A stretch of 61,440 bases of DNA, the filler included, from Basidiobolus ranarum (taxonomy: Eukaryota), in NCBI GenBank assembly GCA_040143965.1. It is 6 parts of 6 records of this genome, joined end to end, with 100 filler letters (N's around TTAATTAATTAA, not from the genome) between each part and the next. Parts side by side here need not be neighbours in the genome. Positions count along the whole stretch, not along the records: positions 20,550 to 30,707 come from JASJQH010000732.1; 5 more parts are not named here. The stretch is one strand, 5' to 3'. This document shows positions 977 through 55,827 of this stretch, in pieces (within the stretch, counting starts at the first letter, position 1; every line of letters begins with the position of its first letter). The notes under the pieces are model-generated. The model searched no databases, was not told where the DNA came from, and saw nothing but the letters and a program-made list of their open reading frames with translations. A program made the position numbers and the translations under genes.

Positions 977-3900
977 ATGGAGAACTTTGATATTCAAGAA
1001 GTTCCACTCAGTCAGCCTGTTAACAAGTATAGTAGATATTTGAGAAGTATAGGAAGATGGATTTTATATCACCCCATGTCACCTGAGGTAGATGCCGATA
1101 CCGCCATGAAATACTTGTTGATAAAAACTTTTTCTCTAGTATTACTGTTTACCATGGTTGCTTGGTCCATTCAATTTGGTAGTACTCCTCAGACTCGTTA
1201 TCTTACCTTGATACCCGTACTATGTGCTACCATCCCTGTCATATTGCATCACACCAAATCCACCACCATCGCAGGAAGCCTTTTGATCGGGTGTTTAATG
1301 TTTGTCAGTGCTGTCACCATTCAAGGGGAAGGTGGTTTTAGTGTGTTAGGTGCCACATGTAGTCATGTATTTCCGTTATTAGCGGTGATGACAATAGGAC
1401 GTACGGCAGGGGTAATGGTCACATTTCTGTGTATCCTTGAGAATGTGTATTTCTATTGGAATCGGTCACTTACCTCTCACACTGTTCCAAGTGCAACTAG
1501 TGAACGTCAAGCACTTATCGTTTTGGTGGGGTACTCGATCAATATATTCTTTATATGTGCCCTGTCTATACTACATGACTTTAGTAGAACCCTCTGTACG
1601 GATGAACTGGTGGAGATCTGTGAACAGGCATTAGACGCTTCCAGAGCCAAGTCTCGATTTGTATCCCAGGTATCTCACGAACTTCGTACCCCATTATCAG
1701 CCATCTTTGGCTGGACTGAGCTTCTCTTGACCGACCCTAAGATTGCAGAGGAACCACGAGCGAGTATTAAGATGGTTCATACAGCATCTCGAAACCTACT
1801 TGCTATCTTGAATGATATATTGGATGTGAGTAAACTAGGGGCTGACAAGATGGTACTTTCTCGAGGCAAGTTTGATCTACATGAATTGGCGGTAGATACA
1901 TGTCATATTATGAGTGGACTTTCCTCCAAAAAAGGCCTGGAATTGCTGTTGGATTATCCTCGCGGGATGCCATGTTTATTTCAGGGAGATTCAGGTTGGT
2001 CATTCTTTATGTGTAGCTGGTGAGTGAGTGAATAACAGTTGTCTTTGAAACAGGGAGAATTAGACAAATATTAAGTAATTTGGTATCGAACGCAGTCAAG
2101 GTAAACTCCCCTTCTTTCCTTTGTTATGGTTGATTGACCTATTAAGCTGGAGATGTCCATCTAGTTTACGGAGAAGGGTTACATCGAGGTATCTTTCAAA
2201 GTACAGAATGAGGATGTAGATTCCACACGAATTCTCTGTCTTGTAAAAGACACGGGTAAGTAGGATTGGATTCGAACTGAATTGTGAATGTTACTTACCA
2301 GTTGTCTGTGCATAGGCATTGGGGTCCCTCATGAGGTTCAAAACAAACTCTTCAAGGAATTCAGCCAAGTCAAAGGAAGGTTAGTAGTTGTCTTCCTGAA
2401 ACACACACTCTCCCCTCCATTGACATTTCTATTATGACTAGCAACCTAGGCTATAGCACTAGAGTACAGACTGGAACCGGCCTCGGACTATTCCTTGTAA
2501 GTCATATCACATCTAATATCCAAGCATCTTCTCACTCTGTTCACTATTAGGTAAAACGTCTCACTGAACTAATGAATGGCGAAGTTTTGATTCAGTCTGA
2601 GCCCAACAAAGGTTCGGTGTTTGGTTTCTCTATTCCACTGGAGAAACAGAAGGACACCGAAGTCAACGATGATTCACAGGTCAATCCACTGCCCACCACC
2701 ACCCATTTCTTATCAGCTTTTCTTAGCAATCCCAGTCCCTTGTACGATACAGAGAACGTTTGCTCTCTGGGCTCGTTACGTCTTCATAATCGGAAATTTC
2801 TAATCTTCTCGAGAAGCAAATATTTCGAATCATTTCTGTTTAAACTTGTTCATGATTCCTGGGGTGTCTCTTCGTGCCATCTGATGACTGAGAAGCAAAA
2901 TGCCGTTTCAAACGAACGATACATCACCGCCCCTAATGAAGCAGAATTCTGTGATAGCGGCTCCATTCTATTATTTGATTTGAGTCCTGGACAAAGGCAT
3001 CTAGCATCCGAGACAAACAATGACACTAGTGTCAACGTTGAGGAATGGTTAGATATCATATGTCGTTCGTTAATTCAAAACCAACTTGAGTATTCGGATG
3101 ATGAGTCGGAAGAGCCCTTGGATCCATCCAACGATAAGCCTAAACCAACCTTGATCTTCTTCTACGCTTTCGGGCAAGCAAGCAAAGTACAAATCCCCAA
3201 TGTTATCAAACGATATTATGATGTATCTATATGTCGTAAGCCAGTTTCCGAGAGAGAGCTGATTGCACTTCTATGTGATCCTCAGCAGAATGAGCAGAAA
3301 TGGATTCTGCCTTCACGCTCTGTACATAGTAAACACCTTCCTGAGCGCCGTCTATCTGCCAGTAAACTTAAACTGCCTAAGCCTATCTTGGGTGGACAGA
3401 TTACAACTCCGCCAAAAGAGTATTTTTCGGGGGATCTTTCCCCGTTCTCTGAAGACCTGCCATCCCCCACTATCACACCCACTCCAACCCCGGAAAAAGA
3501 AAAGCGGGTCAGTATCTCTGACACGGTAGAGTATATCAACTCCAATTCTACGCCCCGAGGGTCTAACGGAAAAAAACGAAGTACGCGCAAGAGTTCGAGT
3601 CCAAGCAACGGTTCAGACCAAACACCCACCAAATTCGCGGGCAATCGATCGAAAATCTTGGTAGTTGATGATAATGCCATTAACAGGTTTATTTCTCCGA
3701 GTTTACCAAGACCATGACCATCTCCCAATGCTTATCTCTTCCTTTATTTACTTCTAGGAAACTCGCCCTCTCTCAACTCAAAAAACTGGGTGTCGATCAT
3801 GTCGACCTTGCGGCAGATGGCATCGTTGCCTGTGATATGCATAAAGAAAACAAATATGATCTTATACTAATGGATTTACAAGTAAGTCTCTTCCCCTGAA

Positions 3901-4300: not shown

Positions 4301-4720
4301 AATAGACTTATTTACAAATCATCCGAAGCATAGGATCGCTAGTATTCTACCCTCCTACCGTTCCATTTCTCTTCTCCCATTTACCCTCAACTGACCTATC
4401 TTGAGTCATACTGTACTGTCTTTCTTTGTACCATAACAAATACTTACATAAAGTTAAATTTCCAACAATCCGGTTACTTGATAATGGATGAAGTGAAGGT
4501 TGAAGGGTGTGATTCATCCCGAGTCATTCCCTTCCATTGGATTACATTCGAATATGTGTTTCGACAGAAATTGTAGCGTCTACGGAATTTTCAACAATTC
4601 AACCAATCAACAAAGTGAGAAAAAAAGTGAACAGAATTCCAATCAATCGAATGGTTCATATATATAGTAACAGCACCACTGAAGTCAACACCGGGATTTT
4701 CTTCCTTTATTTACTTCAAT

Positions 4721-5974
4721 ATGGATAACGTACCAAAAGATTTAGAAGATAAACCTGTTGCTCAAGAACAAAACATCACCCCTTGGGAAGTCGAGGGTGC
4801 TGTGGTAGATGGAAAGGCTCAAGCCATCGATTACAACAAACTCATCCAACAGTTTGGTACTCGTCATATCGACGAAACTTTATTGAATAGATTCGAGAGT
4901 TTAACCGGAAGAAAACCTCACATCTTCCTTCGTCGTGGTATCTTCTTCTCCCACCGTGAGTTGACCCAAATCTTGGATAGATATGAGAAAGGAAAGCCCT
5001 TCTTCTTGTACACCGGACGTGGACCTAGTAGTGATAATATGCATCTTGGACATATGGTACCCTTTGTATTCTGTCAATGGCTTCAAGAAGTGTTTGACGT
5101 GCCATTGGTGATCCAACTTACCGATGACGAGAAGTTCTTATTTAAAGTGAACTTAAAGGCTGAACAATGTCAAGAATACGCCTTTAATAATGCCAAGGAT
5201 ATCGTCGCCTGTGGTTTTAACTTGGAGAAAACCTTTATATTCTCTAACTTTGATTACGTAGGAGGTGCTTTCTATAAGAATGTGGTGAAGATCTCTCGTT
5301 CCATCACCGCTAGTTCATCTAAGGCTGCTTTCGGTTTCACTGATAGTGACTGTATCGGAAAACTTCACTTTGTTTCTATCCAAGCTGCACCCTCTTTCTC
5401 CAACAGTTTCCCACAGATATTTGGTGAAAAGCACGATATCCCTTGTTTGATTCCTTGTGCTATCGATCAAGACCCATATTTCCGGTTAACCAGAGATGTG
5501 GCTCACAAGTTGAAATACCCCAAGCCATCCCTTATCCATGCCAAGTTCTTCCCAGCTCTACAAGGTTCTCAAACCAAGATGAGTGCCTCCATCGATTCTT
5601 CCGCCATCTTTATGAATGATACACCCAACAAGATCAAAAATAAGATCAACCGTTACGCCTATTCAGGTGGTGGAGACACCTTGGAACTTCATCAACAAAA
5701 TGGTGGTAACCCAGATATCGATGTTGCTTATCAATATCTTTCCTTCTTCCTTGAAGATGACGAAGAACTTGCTCAGTTACATCAATCCTATAAGGATGGT
5801 ACTTTGACCACTGGTGCTATGAAGGCTAGATGTATTCAAGTTCTTCAAGCTTTCGTCGCTGGCTTCCAAGAGCGTCGTAGCAAAGTTACTGATGAACTTG
5901 TTAAGCAATTCATGGATCCTACACGTAAAATTGATTACCTACCTAAAAAGAATCAATCTGAAGTGAAAAATTGA
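4721..5974 (+). CDS. WRS1: Cytoplasmic tryptophanyl-tRNA synthetase (intronless)
   Basis: 417-aa ORF with [12 protein letters not shown] (HIGH motif), [11 protein letters not shown] and KMSAS. Confidence 0.97.
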
Positions 5975-10182: not shown

Positions 10183-10282
10183 NNNNNNNNNNNNNNNNNN
10201 NNNNNNNNNNNNNNNNNNNNNNNNNNTTAATTAATTAANNNNNNNNNNNNNNNNNNNNNNNNNNNNNNNNNNNNNNNNNNNN
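10183..10282. other. Artificial contig linker
   Basis: N44-TTAATTAATTAA-N44, with stops in all six frames. Confidence 0.99.
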
Positions 10283-20449: not shown

Positions 20450-20549
20450 NNNNNNNNNNNNNNNNNNNNNNNNNNNNNNNNNNNNNNNNNNNNTTAATTA
20501 ATTAANNNNNNNNNNNNNNNNNNNNNNNNNNNNNNNNNNNNNNNNNNNN
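20450..20549. other. Artificial contig linker
   Basis: N44-TTAATTAATTAA-N44. Confidence 0.99.
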
Positions 20550-20678
20550 GATGGAACCAATTATCAAGTTTGGAAAATTAAAATGAAAATGCTGCTGCAA
20601 GAAAAAGGACTTTGGGACACTGTTGTAGGAGAAGAAAACAATGCAAAACTATCTGAAACCGAAGTTTTACTCCCTTAA
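20550..20678 (+). mobile_element. Ty1/copia-type gag N-terminal fragment
   Basis: Translates DGTNYQVWKIKMKMLLQEKGLWDTVVGEE..., matching the copia gag N-terminal pattern GxNYxxWKxKMxxxLxxxxLWxxV. It stops after 42 codons. Confidence 0.8.
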
Positions 20679-21166
20679 TATAAAGTCTTACACCAAAACG
20701 ACAATTAATCTATGCACAATAGGTCACGAGTAGAAGGCGTAAGAAAGTAAGTTACCAATGTAATCTGGAGAGTGAAATTTCTTCAGATCCGAAGGGGTTG
20801 CTGATTTAGGTGGAATAATTCTAGGTAACATTGTCAATAATAATCTATACAAGTACACAAATATACGAAATCTTTACTTCATGTAAGGCATGAGCTTGTA
20901 AGCGGCAACCAAAGAATGTACCAATCCGGCCTTCAGAAGTAACTTGTCAGAATCTAGAACATGTGGAAACTTCTATCAAACCAATAACATACTCGGTTCA
21001 GGTTGGAAGGAAGCTGATTTGCAAGTTTTACATAACCAGGAGAAAAAACGTAGCCGACTTTTTTACTTTTTTCCTCTAATAATTCATCTGTTTTGTGTTC
21101 AACTTTAGCCTTCTTGAGGTTACGAATATCATCTTCAATGTCTTCGGAATTTTCAAATCCAGTCAT
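20679..21166 (-). pseudogene. Class I histone deacetylase (HDAC8/Hos1-like), 5' part only, apparently truncated
   Basis: Spliced: ...KKVGYVFSPGYVKLANQLPSNLNR|AGLVHSLVAAYKLMPYMK|IIPPKSATPSDLKKFHSPDYI|DFILRE*. It then abuts the antisense copia fragment, with no catalytic core. Confidence 0.7.
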
Positions 21167-22026
21167 ATCTCCACTCTGAGGTAGGGGTGAACTCGAATAG
21201 GTCTCAAGCCTATGTTATGTCAGAATCGTTTATCCGTTGTAGTAGATATTATCGTGTTGACATTTGAATCAATAACTAAAATTTAGACTGCAAATCATTT
21301 GATAAAAAAATTGAATAAATAAACAGAATGCATGATATCGAATATCACCTATCCATAATACAAACATTCTGGATCTTATTCCCGGGTAGAGACCTACACT
21401 CTACACAATCCATAAAAGTTACAGAATAAACTACTCTTTAATGCGTCCAGAAATGATTCAAGTATATATGAGTATTGACAGTTGCATGATAGGTCATACA
21501 ACTAGAATCCATCTATGAACATACTTCAATCCCAATTCGCTTCACCTCTCTCACGTCATGAAAGATAATCATTCAACTAGTTAAAAAATCCAGTAACTAC
21601 ATTCCACTCATTTTCAATGAAAGAAATATTCGCCAAATGGGAGAAATCCGCCTTATGCTCTCGACTTGACGAGTGTTAGTTTGAGGCATCAATCTCACCA
21701 AGTGCCTACACGTTTATACTGATGGAATCGTGAGGAGTTCCTGAAAAGAAACTCGACGCTCCTAAGCTTTGTAAACCGTCTAGCAGATGGAACTCGTTAC
21801 ATTCTAGATAGAGGAAACTAGAAGTTTCTATTGGAAATTAATTTATTTAACATGTGGAAATTTACTGTACAATAATGTCATGATATCTAAAGCCTCATGA
21901 CCATATATTAATCTTCTATCAAGTAAATTAAAAAGGATGGAGAAGTATCAACTAAAATTTCTGAGATAACGGCGAAAGAAACTGTTCGTGACTTGTAGCG
22001 TAAATATAGATACTAGTAGCGGTGAC

Positions 22027-23261
22027 CTAATCAAGGTATAGTTGGTGTTGAGAAATATAATCGATCACTTGATTCGGGAGAAGGTACTTGATAGCCATTC
22101 CACGCTTTATAAACAACCTACGCCTAAGAGTCAATGACTGTTCGTGAATGCGAAATAAAATAAACTCGTGTATACCTGATCTTTGTAGAGCTGATATCGT
22201 TATGAATCAATTGCTTGACTACACGTACATTTTTCTATCATAGTGAAAATGAGCTACCGTGTCATGCGGGATTAAAATCGAACTTACTAACCTTGTACCG
22301 ATTTAAAATGTCATGAGATAGTAAAAAGTTATAAACATCGGACCCCGTGCGCTCAACAATGACACATCCATAATGGCCAAGAATATGATGCAACTAAGCA
22401 ATAATTTCGAAAGATCATGAATCAGCCGTTGTTTGTATTACATACATGTATAGACTGAAGTCAAATAAAGGAGCTTACATCTTTAAGGGCCCAGCAGTTT
22501 GGAATACCAAATGATTCAATCAGGTCGCCTCCAGCTAGAAGCATGATGTGGATGGGTTTTACTTGTCCTGTGAATTAATGGTACTAAGTTAGAAAGAAGC
22601 TTCAGGCGACGATCAAGTAGGGCTTACCATCGGCCAGCAAAACGCCACCACCTTCGGCACCATTTAAACACTCATTGAAATGATCAAGTACGGTAGCTGT
22701 TCGCTGATAAGTGGGATTCATTGCTTCCCATGAATCCACCATGATCCAGTCCGAGGTGTTGTCAACAGCAATCTCGCACATTTGGACTCGGTGAACTGCA
22801 GGTGCCAGCCCTTTTTTGGCATACTTGTCATTCACGGGGGAAAAGTAGCCTCCAATAAGCTCGTATTTGCCTTCCTCCTCGATCTGATCTTTCGCCATTT
22901 CTATAATAATCGCGGTAAGTCATAGTTTAAATAAATCATAAATTAACCCTCACTCACCAAACATTCGTAGGTGAAGGTAGGTAATGGGTGAGAAAGAACC
23001 ACAGGAGATGAGTACTAATGGAATTTTGGACTCGTCTAAAAAGGTGAAGCATATTGGTTTTAGCCAACGCAGAAAGATAATATTTGACGAGGTAAAGTAA
23101 TACAGAGGCTCAAATCAATGGTGAGCTGCTATAAAATATTCAGAGCAAACTATCTCGTCATTGCTTTTAAAAGGTAATTATTTTCTGATACCTCTAAGAG
23201 TAGGTCGGAGTCTATGTCTAGGAAATACATATTGATGGTGAAATAAATCCGGTACAGTCAT
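22027..23261 (-). CDS. NMA1: Nicotinamide/nicotinate mononucleotide adenylyltransferase
   Basis: Spliced: ...VLISCGSFSPITYLHLRMF|EMAKD...SPVNDKYAKKGLAPAVHRVQMC...MLLAGGDLIESFG...DISSTKIR|LFIKRGMAIKYLLPNQVIDYI. First intron 23036-23191. Confidence 0.96.
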
Positions 23262-25583
23262 TTTGATAATGAGTAGTGTTTAGCAACAGAGGCGAAGAGA
23301 TCGAAGAAGATGGAATACGAGAAAGCTTTAGGTAATTGAGAGGATACGAATGAAGGTAATCAATAAACTCGTAACAGGAAAATGTCACGTTGAAACAGAA
23401 GCCGAACAAACAGTTTCGAATGGGAAAAGCTTATTTATTTATCATGTAGCGATCACCTTTTAACCTTTCGCACCAAGTGCCAATAACTAATCAACCCTCG
23501 ATGTGGAATAGTTCAATCCCATTTTGTCATTACTCTTCAGCCTCTTTTTTTTTCGGAATCAGGGCTTTATACCATTGGCAAGTTTGGAAACATTTCGGAT
23601 TTGACCAATTTAGCTAGCTTATGGATCGCATTTCCCGGTTAAATCTTGGCCATCATTAAGAGCAGTGCTGTGAACAAGACTTCACATCCACATTGAAGTG
23701 GAATTATGTAGCAGTGTGCCTCTTTCTAGATCCCACTATTTGGAAGTAAATATAGACCAGGTTGTGGTATTCGGGTTGAATGAAGGAAACAAAGTGGTAA
23801 AACTTCTAAAGAGAGCGATGGCTCCCTCATTTCATGTCGTACAAGGCTGGGATTATGTTTGTAGATAGTGTCAAGCGAATGACCTGATCAGGCTATGGAA
23901 TATAGCAGCTTTGGGCCTCGTCTGGGTTGCGCTTAGTATGGACATAGTATGTTCGGTCATCAGGGTTGGAAGTATTCCACGATCTCTGGAAGCCTATCTT
24001 ATTGTAGTAATTGTAGTTTTTAGTAAATCACCAAACAACCTGCTTAGAATTTCGAGTAAGTCAGCACCAAAATAAGAATCCATTTTAATTTGATAAAGCC
24101 GAAAAAATCGAGAGGATCCAGGCCTAGTTTATAAGCAAAAGCTGACTTCTAGACCGAGACAAATTCAAAACGAAGCTAACTAGCTAGACTTGGTAGATGG
24201 TCTTTTGGCTTTGATATATATGGCAAAGATGGTGACTTCTATCGGCAAATATGAAAAGGAGAGACCATTGGCCTCGAAGTGTGGAAGTCGGAGTCATTGA
24301 TATTAACAAACAGCATACATCCTGATGTATCGACAAGAACAAGCGAGGCTAGTGGACAAGCAACCAAGTCATCCCAGCGTTGATCGACCCTTGCAACAAT
24401 CAACAACCAGCACCCAACACATGCTTGACATGAGACAATGTTGCGGATATATGCTCATACAGCACAATGCAATAAACAAGCTCTAATGCATATATATATG
24501 ATCGGAGGGCACATTCACCCAGTCAATTAATATTAAGGACGGATTAGTGACTGGACTGAGCCAATGTGAGTCAGTTCATCAATAATCGGATCAGGAAAAA
24601 ACCTGTCAGAGCAGGTACATATCTTCACAGGGCATTTCTTAGCTAAGCACACTAACCATCCAAAAGCACTTTTTGTACGCTTTATTGCCCCACTGGCTGT
24701 TCCTGATGCTTCAAATGGTATATGGAAGTGCGTTGCAGATAGATGCTGACCTGAATTTTACATCAAGGATTTTCTATCGCACCAGATGTCAAACCACACA
24801 GCTTCACATGTCATGTAGCCATCATGGATGAATAAGCATTTCAATCTAGTCCACCTCCAAGGCGCAATCCCCCAAAATCACAACAATGTCCCTGATGATT
24901 ACTTGTTACTACTCCTCTTGCGCCATCAAAGTGTGGTGCAAGTTCCAAAGAATGGCGGGTTCGACTGCAGCATTATGTCAATGGTGATTGTGTGATGTAT
25001 GGAAGATTGCATGCTCTTACCTATCTGTCGCCAGCTCTCCCTCCCATTTCCGTAGTTTATTCGTCATGCTTTAATACTTCACGATAGAGAAACGATGATT
25101 ACTTCATATCAAGTTCAATATTCAGTTGGGAGATACGGTTTTTTTCTTGAGGGATTTCCATATTAATCGGCTGTCTCTATGTAGCCAATAATATGGCTGC
25201 TGTCATATGAGTATGAATGTGATTGACTCTTTTGATCGACTAATTGGGATCGAGACAAACAATGGATAGAGTTTTCTTACTCCATTTTCATATGATACAT
25301 ATGGCCAAATTAGCAGTCTTTTATTATTTGATTAGTCCGCTTTGTCCTCTGGCGCATTCAAATAGTCTGCCTATCTCTAATTCTTGCAGAATGCAATATC
25401 TCTTGCAATCAAACATCTTATATTAATTTGCTTAGCAATAGTGTCTATCTGACTTCTATTCTCTTTCATTCTCGCATACTAGAAACGTGTTCTTCGTTTC
25501 CGATCGACCTTTCTCATCTTTGACACTTCATCCCTTTTACACTCATTCAATAGCAATCTTTTGCTTTTACATAACTCAAAGAT

Positions 25584-26660
25584 ATGGCAACAAGTACCTC
25601 TACCGCAATTCCAACCCCACTTCCACAGGAGTCCATAAGTATTCCATCCAGTCCCAGCTCTTCTCAAAAGGCAAAGCTCACCAGACAAGAAGCTTTAGAT
25701 TTGGTAGAAGAAATACTAGCAGAAAGCAATTTATATCGCATATTGGGCGTCTCATCCTCTGCAAGTACTGAAGAAATCCGCAGAGCTTACATATCCAGGA
25801 GTAGAGTGTGCCATCCTGATAAACTACCTGGAAATTCACAGGCCACTGAAGCATTCCAAAGTATGTAAATTCTTTACACAAGTCGTGTTTGTTGACAATT
25901 TCGCCCTTTCCCCATTCCTATATATTGCTTTTCTAACTGACATATTTCCTACGTCCTAGAAATTTCAACCGCTTATGAAACGTTATCAAATACAAATAGT
26001 CGCAGAACCTATGATCACTATGGGACTAAAATTAATAGCTTAAACAGCGAAGAAACCCTGTCCAGTGCTCTGTTGCAGATATTCAACGAGTTTATGGAGG
26101 GAGACTTTGAGCACCTACTTTCCATTGTTGGTAAGTAATAACTTACAGTTATTTCCTAATATTTTATTTTCTAACCCTAGAAAATTTCAGAATTCATCAA
26201 CTTTCAAAACCCAGACCTCAACATTGATAAAGAAAAAGCGAACCAACTTTTTGTTCAAGTTCGGGAGGTATTTTTGGGTAAGTACTGTATAGCTTATATA
26301 TACTGGTAGAAATGGTTTAATTGATATTTTCCCTTCTGGTTTTGATATTTAGTTGCTGGAAAGTACCTTAACGAAGTAAAATTTGAAGTAATGAAACTCT
26401 ACGAAATTCAAGGAGAACTTCGTTCACTATCATACTTTGACGTATTTGGACGCCTCCGGTTAAGTATTCAACTTAGCAGGATATTTTTCAGTATCCCTGT
26501 TAAAATGAATAATGCAGTAGCAGATCGACAGATTGTAAACAGTCAACTATGCAAATTACTGAGCGAACTTACAGGCCTACTAGAGTTCTCTGAGCGTACT
26601 GTTGGCAGGGTCGATGCTTGGGTAGCCGATCGGTGGAAAACACTCCCTCTAAATGGTTAA
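25584..26660 (+). CDS. J-domain (DnaJ class C) protein, 4 exons
   Basis: NLYRILGVSSSASTEEIRRAY...CHPDK...EAFQ|KISTAYETLS...RRTYD, followed by an unrecognised helical region. Confidence 0.88.
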
Positions 26661-27289
26661 ATAGTCCCAGAACATAATCGAAATCGTGCCAATGCTTTCT
26701 CTCTGTCTTGCTGTTACATTTTCTGTTAAATGGTTAAAGTGAAGGTATCGTTGGGGCTTTTATGTGATCCTGTAAATAGTCTACTAGTACTCCAAGTTAC
26801 ATCACTTCGTATACTCAACCTATTGATTAATGAGAACGTTTCTTGGTAGATTGATACTGAATATTATTCTCCTCAATACAACTTAATGGCATTACTATCC
26901 CGCTCTCACTATTTAACCTTGTGCTTGCTCAGAGTTTTCCAAATACCCCGGCTATACACACAGCGATTGATTGACTATGGATTCGTCCGATTGTTGAACG
27001 GCGGTAATATGAAGAGCGAAGAGCAAGAAAAGGTTGTACACTCATAATGATAAAATAACGTAATAAAATAGGTGCACAACATGGCTCATGCCTAGAAACA
27101 TTTTTAAATATTGCTTGGCTTTTAGTGGATTCGATACTGATACCAAGTACGCGTGTAAAAGTTGCGATAATGCACCTTGAAAATATTTCAACTTTATTAA
27201 CATGGTAAAGTATTCCCGATATCAGCATACTTGTGATGAATATATTAAGTAGTGCAGGAAAAGTAGGAATACATCAGTTTAGGAGAAGT

Positions 27290-27604
27290 TTAATGGTTCG
27301 CAAATCGAGGTTGCACTATTTTATCATTAATCTGACGGGTTTGAGGTATAATCGGGGTTCGGTTTTGTTCGAGTTGCTGGGCTCTTTGACCAGCGGCAAC
27401 TTGTGCTTCAAGCTCACGCTCATGCAAAGCCTTGAGTCGTTGTAGATGAACTTCTTCATCATCATAGCTTGTATCCGATAGGGCTTCCTGTCTCTGGTGG
27501 TCATTTTTTTTTAGAGGAGCATGATGCTCTTTACCCTCTTTATGCCTTACACCACTAGTTTTGTTGGCCGGTGGATGTCCAGCTTTGGATTCTTGAGAGT
27601 TCAT
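27290..27604 (-). CDS. Small disordered DAP1/DAPL1 (death-associated protein)-family-like protein
   Basis: N-terminal KAGHPPANKTSGVR and C-terminal KIVQPR match the two conserved DAP-family blocks (KAGHPPAVKAGGMR ... IQQPR). About 104 aa; an upstream in-frame ATG lies at 27637. Confidence 0.75.
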   Translation of the reverse strand: MNSQESKAGHPPANKTSGVRHKEGKEHHAPLKKNDHQRQEALSDTSYDDEEVHLQRLKALHERELEAQVAAGQRAQQLEQNRTPIIPQTRQINDKIVQPRFANH

Positions 27605-30312
27605 GATGATAATGTTACGTGTAGCTTCAGATATCATCCTACTTCATCTTATATACTTTGTCTATTGCCTCCTTCGTCATTCAAAATCATGGCGCATTAA
27701 TGAACCTAATGTTTCACATGGATTCATTGGACTGGTTTTAGTGGGTATTAAAACGAACAAGAATCCCGACGAATGCACTTGGCAGTCACCACAGATTCTA
27801 ATACATTTCCAGTTGATATATAATTGCTGAATTCTATTGGACACACGAAAGCTAAGACGCCTGCACTTGTGGCTACTCTGGTACTGAGTACTTCACTTAC
27901 CACTCAATATAGCTATTTCTCTGCCAACCAAATTGGATCCTTTCATAATACCCGCCACCAGACATCGTTACATTACATATTGATGGAATCTCCCTTAAAT
28001 AGCCTAGAAGTTTATTGCTCAGAAGCACTTAGTCACACCCATGAACTGATCAGGTCGGGATGCACCAGCCTCAACAAATGGTCACGTTACTCATTGAATG
28101 CGCTCTATGTCAAGGAATAGAAGCGTACCAAGTCTCAATTGTTAAAGGGGCTTCTACAGTACCGCACTGAAACAACAATTCATACGGTTTCGAGACCATG
28201 TATGTGTCATTTTGGTGTTCATCCGTGGATCTTTGCCAGCTTAGCCAACATGATCTCGGTAGGAAACCCTTTGCAAACACTAGGCAGGTATCGTCAGATA
28301 TTCGAAATAATCCACGGCCAAAGGCAACTCAGATTGACGACGTTGTGCTGCTATTGGTAATGAGCAAGGCCTAATCCACAGTCCGGATTTATTCAGAGCA
28401 ACATGGTGTATGTGTTAACGAATCTGAGAGCCGGGGATAACCCATCATCACACAACTCTTACCATATTCCTCACATCTCAGACATCACCAATGGTACTAA
28501 GAGCGCCTTCATTATCCAGAATATTCTACGAACCCCATTGGTTTACAAGCACTCGTGGATCTACCTGACACTCTTCTATATGCATCATTGGCTCACATGC
28601 TTGAATTATATCTCCAGGTCATTTGATACGCTGCTTTTCACATTGATGTGAGAGAGTCCTTAGAACAGCACATCACAATCAGACGTTGACGTCACATGCT
28701 CCAATCCGATACTGTCACCACTTTAGCGACACAGGGCATATAGAGCTATTACTCTACTATAAGCCAGATATGAAAGATTCTCTTTCGTCTGCTAAGGGTA
28801 CTTGTGCATTACAAGGTAGGCTATACGAGTTTGCTCATTTAGTTATACTTTGCTGGAGAAGCATCGATGGCTAGGGCTCACAATTAGAATAGTTCTAAAA
28901 CCATCAATACGAATATACATCTCTCCCACATAAAGACGATGTTCTCGTCCTATATTCATAGAATTTCCGCAATCACCATCAGGTGTCCTCAGGGGCTCAA
29001 CAATTAGTCAAACAGATGCTATTCTTGAAGTATTCCTGTATTTCTATTACAAAGATCCAGTAGTGACTAAACCAGATGAAACGATCCTCAATGTTCGGAA
29101 GATGCGGTTCCAGATGCAACTACAGCAGAAGCTATAATTGCTAGGCCCAATCGAAATCCACTCCTATTCCAAAATACTTAAAATCCATCAACCAGATGTG
29201 ATTAGGGTTGAAAAATGATGTTTAACTGATCTTGTGCGTGGCTAACTACATGCTGTGCAACCAATTTACTACATTGAGAAAAGTAGATTTATGACCTCAT
29301 TCCTTTTACTCCGTATTATCAATCTCGGCATTTATATTCACTTAATTGTTCGAACCATGTTATTGCGGATTGATTGATTTGAACACGTTGGTTATGTGAT
29401 AACATCTCATCATGACTTTTGGTCATATGGTTAACGATCTCACTTAGGGTATAGATGTGCTGGTAAGGATGAAAAGTGGGGGTATGGGGGCTGCAGTCCC
29501 CCATGTACATCCCTCCCTCACAATATACACAAGTTACCAGTATATAGAAAGAATTGGGCGTCAGATCTCTGACCTTTGACACATCTGAGGAAAAGACACT
29601 GTTTCCAACATTAAAACACAGCCTTTTCTAGCTTTCATAATTTTTATGAATTATAAGAAATTTCTCAGATATTTAATATTCTTTAATTTGTTATTTGTTT
29701 ATTAATTTACAAGTCTCTGGGAAACTAAAGTGAAGTTATTCTCCTTCAGACTCTAAAAGCTTTTATATATCTTAATTTTATCATGAGGAAACTTGCAGCT
29801 TTTTTAGCTTGATATTTCACAAATTGCTTATTAAGTGTATCCTTTATATAATGTTGAGAGTAAAGAGAAAACTTAATCAATGTTATGGATTTGAAATATT
29901 TAGAAAAACTTTGTGAAGAATACATGAGTAAATCAAGAAGAAAGTGATTATTGGAGATATTATAATTATGTTACAAATCTAGAAATATTGAAAGTGTTGA
30001 TAAAAAGCTTTCAACTTGTAGCTGATTACTTATGTTTTATAAATATTCACATATCACTAGCACCAAGCTTCATATATATATATATATATTTATATGCAAA
30101 ACAGCAAAATAGTCATTAAAATAAACTTTTGTTGAAAGTCTGGTGACTTGTGGTACAAGCAGTAATTCCCAAAGAGGAAAATATGGAGTATGGTAACTAT
30201 ATCTGAACACAAAGTCTAAGGCCAATCAGTTGCTTGTAAAGCTGAAATGCCAAAGTACCATACATTGACAGACTAGGTTAAGATTCCCTAAAAATATAGG
30301 CATAGCATACAA

Positions 30313-30385
30313 GGACTGGTAGCTCAGTAGTTAGAGCACCTTGCTAGAGTGAAGGAGGTCCCAGGTTCAAATTCTGGCCAGACCA
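30313..30385 (+). tRNA. tRNA-like element (anticodon AGA, short variable loop); probably a pseudogene or SINE head
   Basis: Cloverleaf: GGACTGG/CCAGACC (1 mismatch), GCTC/GAGC, CCTTG-CTAGAGT-GAAGG (G-G mismatch), CCAGG-TTCAAAT-TCTGG. A and B boxes present; no T4+ terminator directly downstream. Confidence 0.7.
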
Positions 30386-30432
30386 ATATTTCTCCCTAAA
30401 TAATTTCAATAACTTTTAGGTTATATAGCATG

Positions 30433-30707
30433 TGTAACACAGAGGTGCTAGAGGGGATGAAAAGCACCACAGGGTGTAATCTTTATTTATCTCAAGTCAT
30501 ACAACACAAATAAACAAAGAAGTCAAATTGAAAGTAAAAGTCAAAGGTTTAGTCAACTAAGACTCATTTAGGGCACAATCCCAAATCTCATCATATAAAA
30601 TAAAAGTGTTGGGATAAAGTACCTTATCTTGGGAAATGTAGAAGTCTTTCAAGAATTTTGTAACAAGTGGAGAGGGTGAATTTCTTAGGAGTGAAGTAAA
30701 TCTTTTA
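30433..30707 (-). mobile_element. Possible LTR terminus running into the contig end
   Basis: Minus strand reads AATAAA...GTGTTACA, an LTR-like 3' end, at a contig break. No internal domains are visible. Confidence 0.3.
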
Positions 30708-30807
30708 NNNNNNNNNNNNNNNNNNNNNNNNNNNNNNNNNNNNNNNNNNNNTTAATTAATTAANNNNNNNNNNNNNNNNNNNNNNNNNNNNNNNNNNNNN
30801 NNNNNNN
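30708..30807. other. Artificial contig linker
   Basis: N44-TTAATTAATTAA-N44. Confidence 0.99.
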
Positions 30808-33900: not shown

Positions 33901-35595
33901 TTTGCTAACATTAAGAAATCTTCATTTTATCTTCTATTTCGATATGATTCATACAATCTGTTTAACTTCATGTTTACTTCTTGCAATGGAGTAAAGTTAA
34001 CAAGTTACTTCCTTCAAGTCACCTTGAATTTTTAATACTCATATAGAGACAATGCACTGTAATAGAATGTTGCGTATCTTCAGATTGATATAGGAATGAC
34101 GCAAAGACTTGCAGTTGAGCATATGATATTGAGACTTACGAAGGTATTTGCAAAATATCCTAGGACGAAGTGGTGTGCTTCATAATCTCATGTCAACTCT
34201 AAATTGTTGTATTTGAGATAAAGTGAAAGTGTTTAGGATAAGTAAAAGAATCATACTCTTGGTATTTATTAATTCATTCAGTTGAAATAATAATACCGCA
34301 GTAGGAAATGAAAATAATAACAGTCGTGTTGTATTTTCAGGGTGCTGTAAGGGAAGGATGTTGGAAAGTTTGAGTGAGATTGAAACTTCTGTCTTTTCTC
34401 CATATTTCTAAATTAAATCGGTTTTGACAAGAAATATTTAAGAAAGAATGTTGCACATGCTATATCTGCTCTAGCAGACATTGAGTGCCATGTGCCAGTT
34501 CTTGTAGCTAAACTACATTGGATCATTTACTATGAGCCATATTAGTATTTGCAATGATGAAATCATCCTAACCTTCAATTTAATCAACCATCATCACTCT
34601 AACCACTGATGCAACCTACTTCATCTACTAGCTTACATAATTACCCATCTGAAGTTGATGCAAAGCTTACTAAAGCTATGATACATAACTTACTGGCAAA
34701 TATTTCTGACTTACTACTTATTCGCTTTTGGATTAGTCACCAATTCCTTGATACATACTGATACTCGAAGTATGAATAAAGTCTATAGCGTCCCTTGATT
34801 TTGTATGTGTCTTACTGAGTATAGTAACTCGTCACTTTTCTTGTACATCCCTACAATTTTAATCTCCTATTCATTACATCCTGGAGTCGGAAACCGCATC
34901 CATACTTCTCTTTCCACAGGCTGTCTAGTATGCATTGTGCATGATTGTAGTTAATATCAGGCTTCCATGAGTCAAAATTAACGCACTGCTCACATCAAAA
35001 TCCACAAAACGATCACTGGCAAGTGAAGACAAGCAGGCATTAAAACCTAAATTTGGCGATTAATGTTCAGATATTAATCTTGTCGAGTTTAACGGTATTG
35101 GAAACGAAGTTCCCTATTGGTGGGATTTACCACTATATGACACTTGGATCTCCAGAGCCAATAGATGGCAAGTATATGTTACTCAATCCAATTATAGGAC
35201 ATCCTTATTCTTTAATCCTCCTGTTGAACGAATATTCACTGCATACTAAATTGACAGAAGGGAGGCTTTGAAAACCCGGACGAAATCTGAAGGCAACCGG
35301 TTTGTACCTATCAGCAATAAATATTACATTGTTCAGGGCTTAAAATCTCTATCAAGATGAAACAAAATCCTTTTCAAGGAGTCGTCTCCTGATAACTGAC
35401 CCTGACTTATACATGAATACTTGATCCTTGTTTGTATCTCTAAATATAAATAAGTATTCAGCAATTCCCAATATAAATCTGTTTATCTCTTCTTTGTAGA
35501 CCTCGTGACCATCTGGAAGTATATATACAAGTTGCGCACATCAAAGGCTTGGATTGATTCATCTCCATTAGTAAACATTGCACTGTCAGATCGGA

Positions 35596-36240
35596 ATGAC
35601 GATGCTTAACAACAATGACCTTATGCTTGCTCTCCCTGCGGAATTGGTAGTAAAGGTCTTGAGATTCCTAACCCCATCAGATCTCTGTCGATGCTCAACA
35701 ATTTCGCCTGAATGGAAGCAAATCTGTGACCAAGAAAGCTTGTGGTTTGGATTTACTAGGACTGTGTGGAAAAACAAGATTACCACTCAGCTCGGAATTC
35801 AATCGTCAGGCGACTCTCAAAACTTTACGCATCGGATCTCACCAAGTGGGGCTAAGCTAATGCTAGAAAAGCGACGGCATAAATCAATCAAACCTCCCTT
35901 TAAGATGAACGCACGGCGTAAATACTCATCCATTCCACTGTTGACCTTTAATCGAAATGGGAAGCTGGTCATGCAATCACCTAACAGCGAAGTTAAGAAG
36001 TTGATGGCCCTTCTTAAGGTATATGCTCTCAACGGGTGCTTCAAATTAAAAATTGCCAAGAATGTGATACTCTCCAAGTTCAATTCCATAAATATCTCAC
36101 CTATTGTAAGCAAGATACTTGAACTCTAACAATTTCTACACGACCTGTACTACTCACTATGCCCACTCACTGCTAGCTTTGCGAGTAGATATATTTTCAA
36201 CATGGGCTGGGATTTCATTTTAACTGACAGAGTACTTTAA
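35596..36240 (+). pseudogene. F-box protein, C-terminal half probably decayed
   Basis: Clear F-box LALPAELVVKVLRFLTPSDLCRCSTISPEWKQICDQESLW. Downstream protein-like blocks (SKWEAGHA, TW/GW) are split across frames, and the frame continues past the stop at 36129. Confidence 0.55.
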
Positions 36241-40955: not shown

Positions 40956-41055
40956 NNNNNNNNNNNNNNNNNNNNNNNNNNNNNNNNNNNNNNNNNNNNT
41001 TAATTAATTAANNNNNNNNNNNNNNNNNNNNNNNNNNNNNNNNNNNNNNNNNNNN
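40956..41055. other. Artificial contig linker
   Basis: N44-TTAATTAATTAA-N44. Confidence 0.99.
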
Positions 41056-51202: not shown

Positions 51203-51302
51203 NNNNNNNNNNNNNNNNNNNNNNNNNNNNNNNNNNNNNNNNNNNNTTAATTAATTAANNNNNNNNNNNNNNNNNNNNNNNNNNNNNNNNNNNNNNNNNN
51301 NN
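51203..51302. other. Artificial contig linker
   Basis: N44-TTAATTAATTAA-N44. Confidence 0.99.
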
Positions 51303-51733
51303 CAGTATACGGGAGTGGATTGAAAGATCAAACTCGCGTTAATGAGGTTATGTGATGAAGATAACTACCATGAATCTACACGAACCCACATTTCCATGTC
51401 TCACAATGTTTCCTGAGCAAACATAATTCTATTACTTGTCACTTTGAAGAGCTCATACCATGTACTTGTATCCTTCATTGTGTTGAATTTACTCCTGTTT
51501 CGGGGATTCGGGGATTCGGGAATTTAATCATTTGATTAAGTTTTGTTCAAATGAGCTCTTGCATGCAACTGGATATCCTATTTAATGTCGATGCCCCTAC
51601 TCTCAACCCATAGAAGTTTCTGTTCATTGTTTCTTCCAACTCCTAAGCATCACTTTTATATTGAACAGAGCTTGGAGACTTTCCCTTCATCGCATTATTC
51701 ACTCTCCATTTCCCTAGAGGAGTCTCTTTAAGA

Positions 51734-53356
51734 ATGACTGACAATTATTTCAGCAGTGACACAAAAGGTCCTGCGCTTACCGCTTCAACCATTGATTCTA
51801 CCCCTCCCACTGCTCCTCCTCCTCCCACTTCTTCCAATCCAATTTTGAGACAAATTCTTTGGCATTATGGTACTACCACCTCCGTTAGGGATCCCTCACA
51901 AATCGAACGTGAGCGTTTTCTAGTTGGAAGCGTTCCATTTAATAGATGGTGTTTGATGCCGGCTGCTGTGGTCATTCAATTCTGTTGCGGATCCTTATAC
52001 GCTTGGAGTGTATTTAATGATCCCATTGATAACGCTATTCGCCCTGGATCTACTGAGAAGCTTGCTCCCATCACTTTCTCCATTGCTGTTGGAGTGTTTG
52101 GTATATCTGCAGCTACCATGGGTCCTTGGTTGGAGAGAAACGGCCCCAAGAAAGGTGCCTTGTTGTCATCTACTTTGTTCTACCTGGGTAATTTAATCTC
52201 GGCATTGGCTGTACATTTGAAGCAAATGTGGTTGCTCTATATAGGTTTTGGTATTATTGGAGGATTTGGTCTTGGGTTGGGGTACATATCTCCCGTTTCC
52301 TCTCTTCAAAAATGGTTCCCAGATCGTCGTGGTCTTGCAGCCGGGTTTGCGGTGTGTGGATTTGGTGCTGGGTCCATTGCTATCGGGAAAGTGATTTTGC
52401 CTTTGATCGCGGCGGTTGGACTTCCTCTTACATTCGTCATACTGGGTAGTTTCTACTTTGTGTTTATGGTGAGTGCCGCATTTGTACTCCGAGTTCCTCC
52501 ACCTGGTTATACTGTCATCGCTACGCCAACCGCCCAGACTGAGGTCAATGAAAAGGGTGGAGCAGTGGTTCAACAACCAGTCATCAAATTAACATTGATC
52601 GAATCCATTACCTCGAGGGACTTTATACTTTTATACATTGTATTCTTCGCAAATGCCATCTTCGGTCTTGTAGTTATCTCCAGATTGGCCAATATGATCA
52701 CCGATTTGTTTGGTTATGATAAAAATGCTGCTGCCACAATCGTGTCCATCAATGGTGGATTCAATCTGTTTGGACGTATATTCTTCTCCACCATTTCCGA
52801 TTTTGTAGGAAGAAAGGTGTGCTTCTTGTTTATGTTGGTGATACAGGTTGTGGTTATGGCCACCTTTAACATCATCACTAGCACACAAACCTACTGGGCT
52901 TTCCTTCTCACCATGTTCTCCCTGACTGCCTGCTACGGTGGAGGTTTTGGTGTTATTCCTGCATTCTTGGCTGATATGTTCGGACCTACAAATATTGGTG
53001 CTTGTCACGGAATCATCCTTACTGCCTGGTCCATTGCTGGTGTTGGAGGTGGTTTGGTATTCACTGCAGTTTACAACAATATGATTTCCAGCGGAAGTAC
53101 CAAGAGTGACCCAAGAACCTATGTCGTTAACGTGTACTGGATTTTAGTATTTGTGTTGATTGGCCTCATTGCTGGTGTATTTGTACGCACAACAATGAAA
53201 GATCGTCTTCTTCCTGCAGTTCCAGGACAGATTTTGCGCATGAGAATATTCGGCAAGACCGTACGCTTGGTGAATAACAATGGAATGCGTCTCGAAACAC
53301 TAACATTCGAGCAAGAAGAAGCGGAATGGAATCAATATTTGTCTCAATTGCAATAA
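51734..53356 (+). CDS. MFS transporter, oxalate:formate antiporter / YhjX-like family (intronless)
   Basis: 540 aa, about 12 TM; GSLYAWSVF, GLGLGYISPVSSLQKWFPDRRGLAAG, CYGGGFGVIPAFLADMFG. Confidence 0.92.
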   Translation: MTDNYFSSDTKGPALTASTIDSTPPTAPPPPTSSNPILRQILWHYGTTTSVRDPSQIERERFLVGSVPFNRWCLMPAAVVIQFCCGSLYAWSVFNDPIDNAIRPGSTEKLAPITFSIAVGVFGISAATMGPWLERNGPKKGALLSSTLFYLGNLISALAVHLKQMWLLYIGFGIIGGFGLGLGYISPVSSLQKWFPDRRGLAAGFAVCGFGAGSIAIGKVILPLIAAVGLPLTFVILGSFYFVFMVSAAFVLRVPPPGYTVIATPTAQTEVNEKGGAVVQQPVIKLTLIESITSRDFILLYIVFFANAIFGLVVISRLANMITDLFGYDKNAAATIVSINGGFNLFGRIFFSTISDFVGRKVCFLFMLVIQVVVMATFNIITSTQTYWAFLLTMFSLTACYGGGFGVIPAFLADMFGPTNIGACHGIILTAWSIAGVGGGLVFTAVYNNMISSGSTKSDPRTYVVNVYWILVFVLIGLIAGVFVRTTMKDRLLPAVPGQILRMRIFGKTVRLVNNNGMRLETLTFEQEEAEWNQYLSQLQ

Positions 53357-53910: not shown

Positions 53911-55827
53911 TCAAGACCTTGCAAATCGCTCCTGTCTAGTTTGTAGGTCCAATACTCTGTCAAGTAACTGATGGTTTTCTTCCACTAAATCAGTCACTCT
54001 AACAACAAATCTATCCAACGTAAACCTATTGGACTTTTCAGTGTTACGAGGCGCCTCTACATCTCTGGGGGAAATATCCGGAATTCGATGGAATAATTGA
54101 CGAAGAATATAGTCAACATCCTCACCTTGCTGTCGTAGCTGATCGATATCCTGTATAGCACTGGATAGCTGCTTTTGTAATCGATCGATGGCCCTACCCT
54201 GCTCCATATTTATCATGTAGACATCCTCGCCCTCTTCTAAATGGCATAATTCAAGTTCGCGTTCTAGTCGTTCTACTTTCTCTTCTAATTCTAGACGTTT
54301 CCTGCGTTCTTTATCGGCTTCCATACGAAATTTCTCTTTCTCTAGAAATGCTGGCTGTAAAACTGAATGAACCAAATGCTTCATCTCACCATCATGTTCT
54401 GGAAAGGATGGAGGGTTAAAACCCTCATCAGAAGGAGAAGTTTCTTGTAATTGGAACTCCAAGGATTCTACACGAGATCGATAAATCTCCACTTCATCTT
54501 GTAAGGCAGTCAACTTGGTCATAAGGGAAGGATAGTTCTGATTATTTGAGTGATAGATGGGTTGGGGTTGATGAAGTAAATTCAGGTCAAGTACAGTTTG
54601 AGTCGGAGCTTTTACCGGATTCCAAACGGTCTCTATATACTCCGATTCAACCGAAGGAACAGAAGATTCGGAATGAATATCAGTTAGTGAGTTGGTGGTA
54701 ACGGAGGAAATCAGGGAGCTTTCTGAATGATTCTCAAGTCCATGTTTAATTGGTTCTTCGTCTATTCCTTTTATGTTCGTCCAATCTTTCTTGGCCACTG
54801 TGATTGAAGTCAAATCATTTGGATGAAAGTAGTCTTCAGTAAGTATCTGCTGCCTGGACATGTGTAAGATAGGATGTATCCCTGAGGGGACCACGTGGTT
54901 TTCTTGCTCATCATGAGATGTGATGGTAGGAGTAGGATGGCCATCATTGGATTCGCTGTCGGGATCTACTTTGTTGATGTGCTGGAGTTTCCCGTTGGTG
55001 GAGGGGACAAAACTCTGAGCGAAATTAGATTTGGCAAGTTTGTTCTCTTGATCACTAGAAACTTTGAATAAAGCCACCGCAAGAACCCCAGCTGTGTGAT
55101 GTAGCATACGATTCAGGGTTTGATTTGCCCGTTGAGTTACTTTCCATAGACTATTGGCTACTTCATCAACCTTTCTGCCCGCATTCGCCAGTTCCTCGGA
55201 AGTTTTCTTTAATAAATATTTGTTTGATGCATGTAACTGAATTAATGTATGTGCGTTATCTAAAAATTTCGTTTCATACGATAGTAGTGAATTCAATGAA
55301 GACATTTGGTTTCTCTGGGCTTCATAATCCTAATGGAAAGTGGTTAGTGTATGTAAGGATTGTATATAGATTACCCATTAATTAATTTGTTACACAATAC
55401 GAATGAACGGTCTTACCTGGCGTAGCTGTTCCATCTGTTTAATAGTCAGTACTTTGTATTCGCACGCGTCCTGTAATGCTTGTGAGATCAGCACTTTCAT
55501 TTGATGATCCTCGGATGCTGCAATGCTAGGAATAGTCACCACGGGATTGGGAGGGATAATGTAATGCTCTGAATGTGAAGTAAACTCGGCGACTGTAGAG
55601 ATATGTGGACGGAGTAACGGTGGTAAAATAGGCAATGGCTTTTCTCTGACATCCCAGCTTTCTAGGGAATCGGCACTGGATTCGTGGATAGGAGCATACT
55701 CAGCAGTAGTAGTGTAATTGGGATTTTTTGGTGTTAGATATGACCGATCATTCGATTCACCAGCATTTCCCCTTTCTTTTGAACGAGGTAGAAGCCCTCT
55801 ACGACGAGATTGGAATAATGCTGACAT
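53911..55827 (-). CDS. Coiled-coil protein with an Up-regulated during septation (Uds1)-type domain, 2 exons
   Basis: LISQALQDACEYKVLTIKQMEQLRQ|DY...ETKFLDNAHTL...RKVDEVANSLWKV...RMLHHTAGVL fits the recalled Uds1 pattern. Intron at about 55330-55416. Confidence 0.8.

Follow-up and report, generated by a model that had tools for sequence, protein, structure and literature searches.

According to the preprint that describes them (Leesch et al., bioRxiv 10.1101/2021.11.03.467131), the vertebrate proteins Dap1b and Dapl1 place their C-terminus in the polypeptide exit tunnel of egg ribosomes, where an invariant glutamine (position 105 in zebrafish and 109 in Xenopus) occupies the site of the last residue of a nascent chain and bonds with the hypusine of eIF5A; mutation of this glutamine abolishes ribosome binding. 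The same text reports that the neighboring glutamine (position -1) bonds with 28S rRNA in Xenopus, that crosslinks connect the N-terminal motif with Rpl31 where the tunnel opens, and that altering the length of the tail by one residue leaves binding unaffected. Two motifs, P-A-V-K-A-G-G-M/K-R at the N-terminus and I-Q/H-Q-P-R-K/R-x at the C-terminus, are common to Dap, Dap1b and Dapl1, and the family is described there as unstructured and basic, with about 15% proline. A tunnel-inserting tail is also found in SNOR of Schizosaccharomyces pombe, which, according to its description, occupies the exit tunnel when 80S ribosomes are dormant and contacts the hypusinated lysine of eIF5A; SNOR additionally carries a structured SBDS-like domain at the peptidyl-transferase center that Dap1b lacks (PMC13345908). 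Here we analyze a 61,440-nucleotide stretch of DNA from the fungus Basidiobolus ranarum (assembly GCA_040143965.1), the whole of which is referred to as the window, and describe a gene that, as judged from its sequence, probably encodes a divergent fungal relative of the DAP family, below the accepted profile threshold, with an altered tail and a helical middle.

An uninterrupted minus-strand open reading frame (ORF) occupies positions 27290-27637 of the window. Read from its second ATG, it encodes a hydrophilic protein of 104 amino acids (11.9 kDa, grand average of hydropathy (GRAVY) -1.38, isoelectric point 8.1, no cysteine or tryptophan) with motifs near both ends, in residues 7-20 and 92-104 (INDKIVQPRFANH), as the original prediction had proposed. 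The size given in that prediction, about 104 amino acids, agrees with the second ATG, and the coordinates that accompanied it are those of the 115-aa frame. We infer a start at the second ATG because the closest relative, from Basidiobolus meristosporus, begins at the equivalent methionine (MNS...) without the extension, and because only 11 nt separate the first ATG from the TATA-like box upstream of it, which is itself no more than a match to the consensus within AT-rich sequence; the 11-codon extension is therefore probably not translated. The AATAAA downstream of the stop codon is likewise a consensus match only. The interval that separates the TATA-like box from the first in-frame ATG also contains a three-codon mini-frame, ATG-AAG-TAG (27638-27660, minus strand), in a reading frame other than that of the main ORF.

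The B. meristosporus relative (strain CBS 931.73, a member of Basidiobolomycota) is a 103-aa hypothetical protein that shows 68% identity to the window protein at 100% query coverage. The two proteins align end to end with a single one-residue, in-frame gap, and the start methionine and the terminal histidine of the relative are equivalent to those of the 104-aa form. The two sequences hardly differ over the first 38 residues and over the stretch 62-84, only 2 of the 10 positions in residues 85-94 are invariant, and 7 of the last 10 are (K95, I96, Q98, P99, R100, N103 and H104), so that the C-terminal decapeptide appears as an island of conservation; both terminal motifs are kept in both proteins. 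This pattern, in which the motifs and the predicted helix are retained and the linkers vary, speaks for a translated, constrained gene, and the frame can thus be taken as a real, intronless gene of a Basidiobolus-like fungus.

The kinship of the window protein with the DAP family is supported by several concordant lines of sequence comparison, each of them weak alone. Pfam DAP (PF15228) is the sole family matched at E<=10 by the 115-aa form, the 104-aa form and the B. meristosporus relative, with sub-threshold scores of 14.3 bits (E 0.083) for the window protein and 15.0 bits (E 0.05) for the relative. The alignment covers all 98 positions of the profile, spanning residues 7-100 of the window protein and 7-99 of the relative, and has its two ends on the K of KAGH and the R of QPR, as it does in the bona fide DAP L008 (K10 and R102). 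A search of 177,635 distinct PDB sequences with a profile of the two Basidiobolus proteins retrieved, at E<=10, only chains of Dapl1-B and Dap1b, both ribosome-bound (Xenopus Dapl1-B, 7oyc_s1, E 0.1; zebrafish Dap1b, 7oya_s1, E 0.25).

To these can be added comparisons with two DAP sequence sets. Scanning metagenome contigs with the back-translated pattern KAGHPPAxKxxGxR gave 20 loci, 18 of which encode DAP-like ORFs; the two unrelated GC-rich frames (L005 and L011), three early-stopping ORFs (L014, L015 and L018) and one duplicate (L007, identical to L002) were dropped. All 14 retained metagenome or metatranscriptome proteins pass Pfam DAP (best E 2.7e-31). A hidden Markov model (HMM) of these 14 sequences gives full-length scores of 22.9 bits for the window protein and 28.1 bits for the relative, which none of 5000 shuffles reach (maximum 12.9). 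A second HMM, built from 129 sequences, none of them fungal (120 database proteins and the 9 non-duplicate ones of the 14 metagenome DAPs), ranks this ORF first among the 1082 ORFs of the whole window (stop-to-stop, six-frame, at least 30 aa) with an E-value of 8.6e-5, the runner-up having 1.5; this window-wide value answers the multiple-testing concern that a scan of the entire window would otherwise raise. The database proteins, which serve below as the reference family, are the best 120 of 1293 matches at E<=1 to a 16-sequence alignment query, and the named ones among them are all from animals.

Some of the loci retrieved from metagenomes deserve comment in their own right. The two unrelated ones (L005:614-874, minus strand; L011:7798-8058, plus strand) contain an identical 86-codon frame without methionine and with 62-63% GC, in which the chance match to KAGHPPAxKxxGxR is followed by P-R-F-A-N, coincidentally echoing the C-terminal PRFAN of the window protein. 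The three early-stopping ORFs (L014:6879-7058, L018:5820-6065 and L015:617-751, all minus strand) contain the N-terminal DAP-like part only, with KAGHPPAVKVGG[VM]R before the frame ends, and are probably first exons of intron-containing eukaryotic DAP genes. In two further loci (L006:91-417 and L012:78-449, both plus strand), PAEKVGG replaces PAVKAGG and the protein stops directly after INQPR; L012 is distinguished, in addition, by a 17-residue acidic insertion ahead of the third block of these DAPs (see below).

The profile score derives entirely from the N-terminal block. In the window protein, K-A-G-H-P is followed by P-A-N-K-T-S-G-V-R, with five of the nine residues identical to the motif of Leesch et al., and the pattern KAGHxPAxKxxGxR is fitted by this protein as well as by 74 of the 120 family proteins. 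An HMM of the N-terminal block alone scores 27.6 bits for the window protein and 36.1 bits for the relative, compared to a maximum of 12.4 among 5000 shuffles, none of which reach these values.

At the opposite end, the two Basidiobolus proteins terminate in I-V-Q-P-R-F-A-N-H and I-T-Q-P-R-L-Q-N-H, respectively, with I, Q, P and R all present. MAFFT places I96, Q98 and P99 in the I-Q-Q-P-R columns of the family, and Pfam position 98 falls on R100; Gln98 (Gln97 in the relative) lies in the column of the invariant glutamine and is kept in both proteins. An I.QPR within the last 12 residues occurs in 33 of 200,000 shuffles of the window protein, and the looser [ILVM].QP[RK] in 273 of 200,000. The distance from the K of KAGH to the R of QPR is 94 residues in the window protein and 93 in the relative, within the range of 91-102 (median 96) observed in the 75 of 120 family proteins that contain both patterns. 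The lengths of 104 and 103 aa, with motifs at opposite ends, agree with the size of about 100-110 aa in the Dap/Dap1b/Dapl1 family.

In the ESM-Atlas, the nearest cluster of the window protein has 234 members, mostly from Mucoromycota, with PF15228 on 18% of them (score 0.92, 207 of 256 features), followed by two chordate DAP1 clusters (0.87 and 0.86); scores below 0.9 and family labels on under half of the cluster members are leads only, and scores of at least 0.9 arise for 4-10 of 100 shuffled proteins. The order is the same with residues 24-104 alone, that is, with the N-terminal motif removed (0.88, 0.84 and 0.84). Structural neighbors in the Atlas (BEX, FlgM and others; TM score 0.43-0.67, under the bar) were rejected as meaningless for a single-helix, low-confidence model. 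Taken together, these comparisons suggest that the window protein is probably a divergent homolog of the animal DAP/DAP1/DAPL1 family.

The AlphaFold2 model consists of a single helix (Table 1) flanked by residues 1-48 and 81-104 without regular structure (mean predicted local distance difference test (pLDDT) 65, predicted template-modeling score (pTM) 0.30). In sequence, the helix is largely preserved in the B. meristosporus relative. In composition, the relative is more basic (isoelectric point 9.7), and lysine and arginine together make up 15.4% of the window protein and 17.5% of the relative, with a family mean of 15.2%. The global identity of the Basidiobolus proteins to invertebrate-type DAPs in MAFFT alignments is 22-31%.

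Because the N-terminal block, the isoleucine, the key glutamine and the Pro-Arg pair are kept at a family-typical spacing, and the C-terminal arm is predicted to be unstructured, we propose, tentatively, that the most likely mechanism is a DAP-type tunnel plug that works with eIF5A. In vacant ribosomes (80S or 60S), the exit tunnel would take up the 24-residue unstructured arm, which by our own estimate would span much of the tunnel when extended, such that Gln98 of I-V-Q-P-R comes to the site that the final residue of a nascent chain would take and touches the eIF5A hypusine. The KAGHPPAxKxxGxR block of the N-terminus would lie at the tunnel exit near eL31 and the central helix in or outside the vestibule, the conserved terminal Asn-His might reach further past the peptidyl-transferase center, and translation would be kept in check for as long as the ribosomes are in storage. 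In the solved forms, whose chains of 109 and 113 aa carry the key glutamine at positions 105 and 109, it is followed by 4 residues, compared to 6 in the window protein, and the extension therefore amounts to two residues relative to the ribosome-bound proteins; the conservation of Asn-His in both Basidiobolus proteins hints that it matters. The ORF, its conservation, the two motifs with their spacing and the predicted disorder come from the sequence analysis itself; we infer all that concerns ribosomes, eIF5A and spores by analogy with the animal proteins, and the function in ribosome dormancy in resting spores put forward in the original prediction would be pure conjecture. As a whole, the best explanation of the data appears to be a real gene for a divergent DAP homolog with a tunnel-plug mode of action, to which we assign a probability of roughly 0.55.

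A considerable body of observations weighs against this explanation. The Pfam scores of both Basidiobolus proteins fall short of the gathering cut-off of 27 bits, at about half of it, and because the cut-off is not reached, the window protein is not a confirmed member of the family. The original prediction named the lack of a significant DAP profile hit as its refutation; judged in this way, the outcome is negative with the curated Pfam model and positive with our own family HMM, and the predicted kinship is supported in part. The Atlas scores are subject to the shuffling background given above. The profile signal is entirely N-terminal: an hhalign comparison of the Basidiobolus pair with the 14 DAPs (probability 95.4, E 1.9e-8) stops after 19 N-terminal columns, and its figures are partly circular because these DAPs were retrieved with the N-terminal motif itself. 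A profile of columns 32-142 of the DAP alignment yields -2.0 bits for the window protein and -0.9 bits for the relative (4794 and 4341 of 5000 shuffles are equal or better), and a profile of the C-terminal block yields -0.4 and 2.7 bits (3075 and 501 of 5000). In PDB, the C-terminal 44 residues alone retrieved no DAP chain and one irrelevant weak match, PulS (E 1.3), and the C-terminal 24 residues alone retrieved nothing.

Further discrepancies concern individual positions. At the N-terminus, the K of KAGH is preceded by only 6 residues, where family proteins have 8 or more (median 9). The C-terminal match is confined to I-x-Q-P-R: the key glutamine is preceded by V or T, as opposed to Q (61), H (30) or N (26) in all 117 family proteins with a QP[RKS] end, and QPR is followed by F or L where K or R is usual. 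The four-residue tail after QPR, to which the original prediction drew attention, is real and unusual, given that 37 of these 117 proteins have no residue there, 73 have one, 7 have two and none has more than two. The loss of the rRNA-bonding glutamine and of the basic residue after QPR weighs against an identical mode of binding. In the middle, a confidently predicted helix takes the place of the proline-rich region of the compared proteins, and the proline content is 5.8% in the window protein and 7.8% in the relative, against a family mean of 12.0%. Both Basidiobolus proteins lack the SPP block, which 96 of the 120 family proteins have and which, in the human protein, holds a mapped mTOR-dependent site. 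Of the third block shared by the retrieved DAPs, DFPPEAVxxFHxKPxP, only an aligned E-A remains, and the presence of this block in invertebrate-type DAPs makes the initial statement that animal members share only two blocks too strong.

The scarcity of relatives points in the same direction. The two-sequence Basidiobolus profile, searched exhaustively with hmmsearch against 1.84 billion representatives, recovered the query alone at E<=0.001, and a locus scan of metagenome contigs gave 190 pattern matches, none of which was confirmed by tblastn. A word-indexed search with the whole window protein returned the protein itself and the B. meristosporus sequence only, and one with residues 1-40 alone returned only the query.

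Three other explanations have to be weighed against a DAP-type tunnel plug. The protein could be a true DAP homolog that does not plug ribosomes and acts, in the manner described for other DAP1 proteins, as a small disordered regulator of the nutrient/TOR type, in autophagy or cell death, or in some lineage-specific capacity of the helix. Membership in the DAP family does not guarantee the function because its animal members vary in ribosome binding: as reported in the accessible part of the preprint, Drosophila Dap does not bind rabbit ribosomes and vertebrate Dap binds weakly (bioRxiv 10.1101/2021.11.03.467131). Moreover, the length of the fungal tail and its residues at positions -1 and +4 are not those of the family, and 32 residues form a confident helix in the proline-rich region of the family. 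However, the absence of the SPP block from both proteins does not favor a regulator of this kind, and the parts conserved between the fungus and animals are exactly the two blocks that are placed on the ribosome in the accessible account of the vertebrate structures, at the tunnel exit and at the peptidyl-transferase end, including the glutamine whose mutation abolishes binding. We regard a non-plugging homolog as rather unlikely. Still less probable, in our estimate, is chance or convergence, whereby an unrelated, lineage-restricted disordered protein would by accident carry a linear motif that resembles KAGHPPA, together with a QPR close to the C-terminus. The sub-threshold Pfam score, the lack of relatives beyond Basidiobolus in three sequence searches and the metagenome locus scan, and profile scores no better than those of shuffles outside residues 1-22 are all compatible with such a coincidence, and the two unrelated loci among the 20 retrieved from metagenomes demonstrate that chance alone can produce a DNA match to the N-terminal pattern. 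It would nevertheless require four independent features to coincide. The N-block scores are at least twice the shuffle maximum, the I-x-Q-P-R end has a probability between 1.7e-4 and 1.4e-3, the length and the motif spacing fall inside a 12-residue family range, and DAP clusters remain the nearest Atlas neighbors when the N-terminal motif is removed; furthermore, the window-wide E-value and the conservation of both motifs across the two Basidiobolus proteins count against an accidental resemblance.

Finally, the frame might be no gene at all, that is, an accidental ORF in AT-rich intergenic DNA that an annotation pipeline also picked up in a related genome. The G+C content at third codon positions is low (0.31), that of the ORF (0.449) barely exceeds that of the flanks (0.424 and 0.370), and other frames of comparable length overlap it or lie next to it, for example a 114-aa stop-to-stop frame at 26929-27273. 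Yet the entire frame, from its start to its end, has been preserved in a relative whose protein is only 68% identical, the conservation of motifs and helix among variable linkers is unexpected for non-coding DNA, and the family HMM match is specific to this frame, all of which makes an accidental ORF highly improbable.

The DAP-type tunnel plug, if correctly predicted, might belong to a broader scenario, in which a DAP-eIF5A tunnel-dormancy module was present in the animal-fungal ancestor, was kept in early-diverging fungi (in Basidiobolus and probably in Mucoromycota) and lost in model Dikarya, and silences the ribosomes of resting spores through a fungal variant of binding. We consider this scenario doubtful. 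The variant would be distinguished by the helical middle, the lack of the rRNA-bonding glutamine at position -1 and a tail that exceeds that of the solved vertebrate complexes by two residues and ends in a conserved Asn-His. If true, the fungal relative would move the origin of the DAP family back to the animal-fungal ancestor and would offer, in the form of a 12-kDa protein, a concrete candidate for ribosome storage in the spores of zygomycete-type fungi. The finding is thus a lead, built on short motifs, on ribosome storage in early-diverging fungi and on the age of the DAP family.

In the accessible text of the preprint, Dap1b, Dapl1 and Dap are described as conserved across animals and the word 'fungi' does not appear (bioRxiv 10.1101/2021.11.03.467131); the accessible parts of two reviews of hibernation factors give Dap1b/Dapl1 for frog and fish eggs only. 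Our literature search, which covered main texts and, for its broadest query, a part of the matching papers, found no fungal DAP relative. Given that PF15228 is already assigned to part of the Mucoromycota cluster, the idea of a fungal DAP is not wholly new at the level of automatic annotation.

As for the genomic context, the window consists of six pieces of about 10.16 kb each, with spacers recurring about every 10.26 kb, and the TTAATTAATTAA at the center of each spacer provides stops in all frames. Physical linkage to the DAP-like gene is accordingly limited to the piece 20550-30707 (10,158 bases), and genes on different pieces need not be neighbors because the window is a concatenation of separate pieces. 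On this piece, the DnaJ and cytidylyltransferase-like exons (Table 1) are the only other recognizable coding fragments; both look like parts of intron-containing genes, and the latter is possibly of the NMNAT type. The HisKA, tRNA synthetase, MFS, Uds1 and F-box genes were rejected as neighbors on account of their location on other pieces, the gene content of which is that of an ordinary fungus. A tblastn search found no second copy of the DAP-like gene within the window.

Table 1. Features of the DAP-like gene, its piece and the remainder of the window (positions along the window)
Feature	Position	Strand	Remarks
AATAAA	27193-27198	-	92-97 nt downstream of the stop codon
Stop codon TAA	27290-27292	-	
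Likely coding sequence, 104 codons, one exon	27293-27604	-	Start at the second ATG (27604-27602)
C-terminal tail KIVQPRFANH, residues 95-104, with I-x-Q-P-R	27293-27322	-	MAFFT, Pfam endpoint, conservation
Gln98	27311-27313	-	Position of the invariant Gln of the family
Predicted single alpha-helix, residues 49-80	27365-27460	-	AlphaFold2, 16-sequence alignment, pLDDT 84-87
N-terminal DAP motif KAGHPPANKTSGVR, residues 7-20	27545-27586	-	Block covered by the PDB profile matches to Dapl1-B/Dap1b
Possible 11-codon N-terminal extension	27605-27637	-	Upstream in-frame ATG at 27637-27635; 115-aa frame
TATA-like TATATAAG	27648-27655	-	44-51 nt upstream of the second ATG, 11 nt upstream of the first
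DnaJ domain exon	25575-25868	+	E 1.1e-12; about 1.4 kb from the DAP-like gene, same piece
Cytidylyltransferase-like exon	22602-22919	-	E 1.7e-5; same piece as the DAP-like gene
Spacers, 44 N + TTAATTAATTAA + 44 N	10183-10282, 20450-20549, 30708-30807, 40956-41055, 51203-51302		
Long open frames on other pieces	812-2023 (+), 4631-5974 (+), 51665-53356 (+), 53911-55329 (-), 35575-36129 (+)		Frames with HisKA, class-I tRNA synthetase (W/Y), MFS transporter, Uds1 and F-box domains

In comparison with known systems, a distinction of names has to be made at the outset. The yeast protein called Dap1 is a damage-response, heme-binding, cytochrome-b5-like protein that is unrelated to the family considered here and has only the name in common with it; the designation 'fungal DAP1' is best avoided because it invites confusion with that protein. 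SNOR resembles the proposed DAP-type plug in outline only, as it belongs to a different family and includes the SBDS-like domain. The 'hypothetical proteins' of the Mucoromycota cluster in the Atlas are, like the window protein, fungal and of similar size (the representative has 125 aa), a likeness that is expressed in language-model features alone. With invertebrate DAP1 (PF15228), the window protein has in common both terminal motifs, a spacing within the family range and a basic, hydrophilic composition poor in cysteine and tryptophan; unlike these proteins, it lacks the DFPPEAVxxFHxKPxP and SPP blocks and has 6 residues before KAGH, where they have at least 8, and 4 after QPR, where they have 0-2. 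From vertebrate Dap1b/Dapl1 (PDB 7oya, 7oyd and 7oyc), the fungal protein differs by V/T in place of the rRNA-contacting glutamine, by F/L in place of K/R after QPR, by its central helix and lower proline content, and by a similarity below the Pfam cut-off. Like them, it is small (104 aa, with chains of 109 and 113 aa in the solved structures), carries KAGH(P/L)PAxKxxGxR near the N-terminus and has, toward the C-terminus, an I-x-Q-P-R block that keeps the glutamine through which the vertebrate proteins contact eIF5A.

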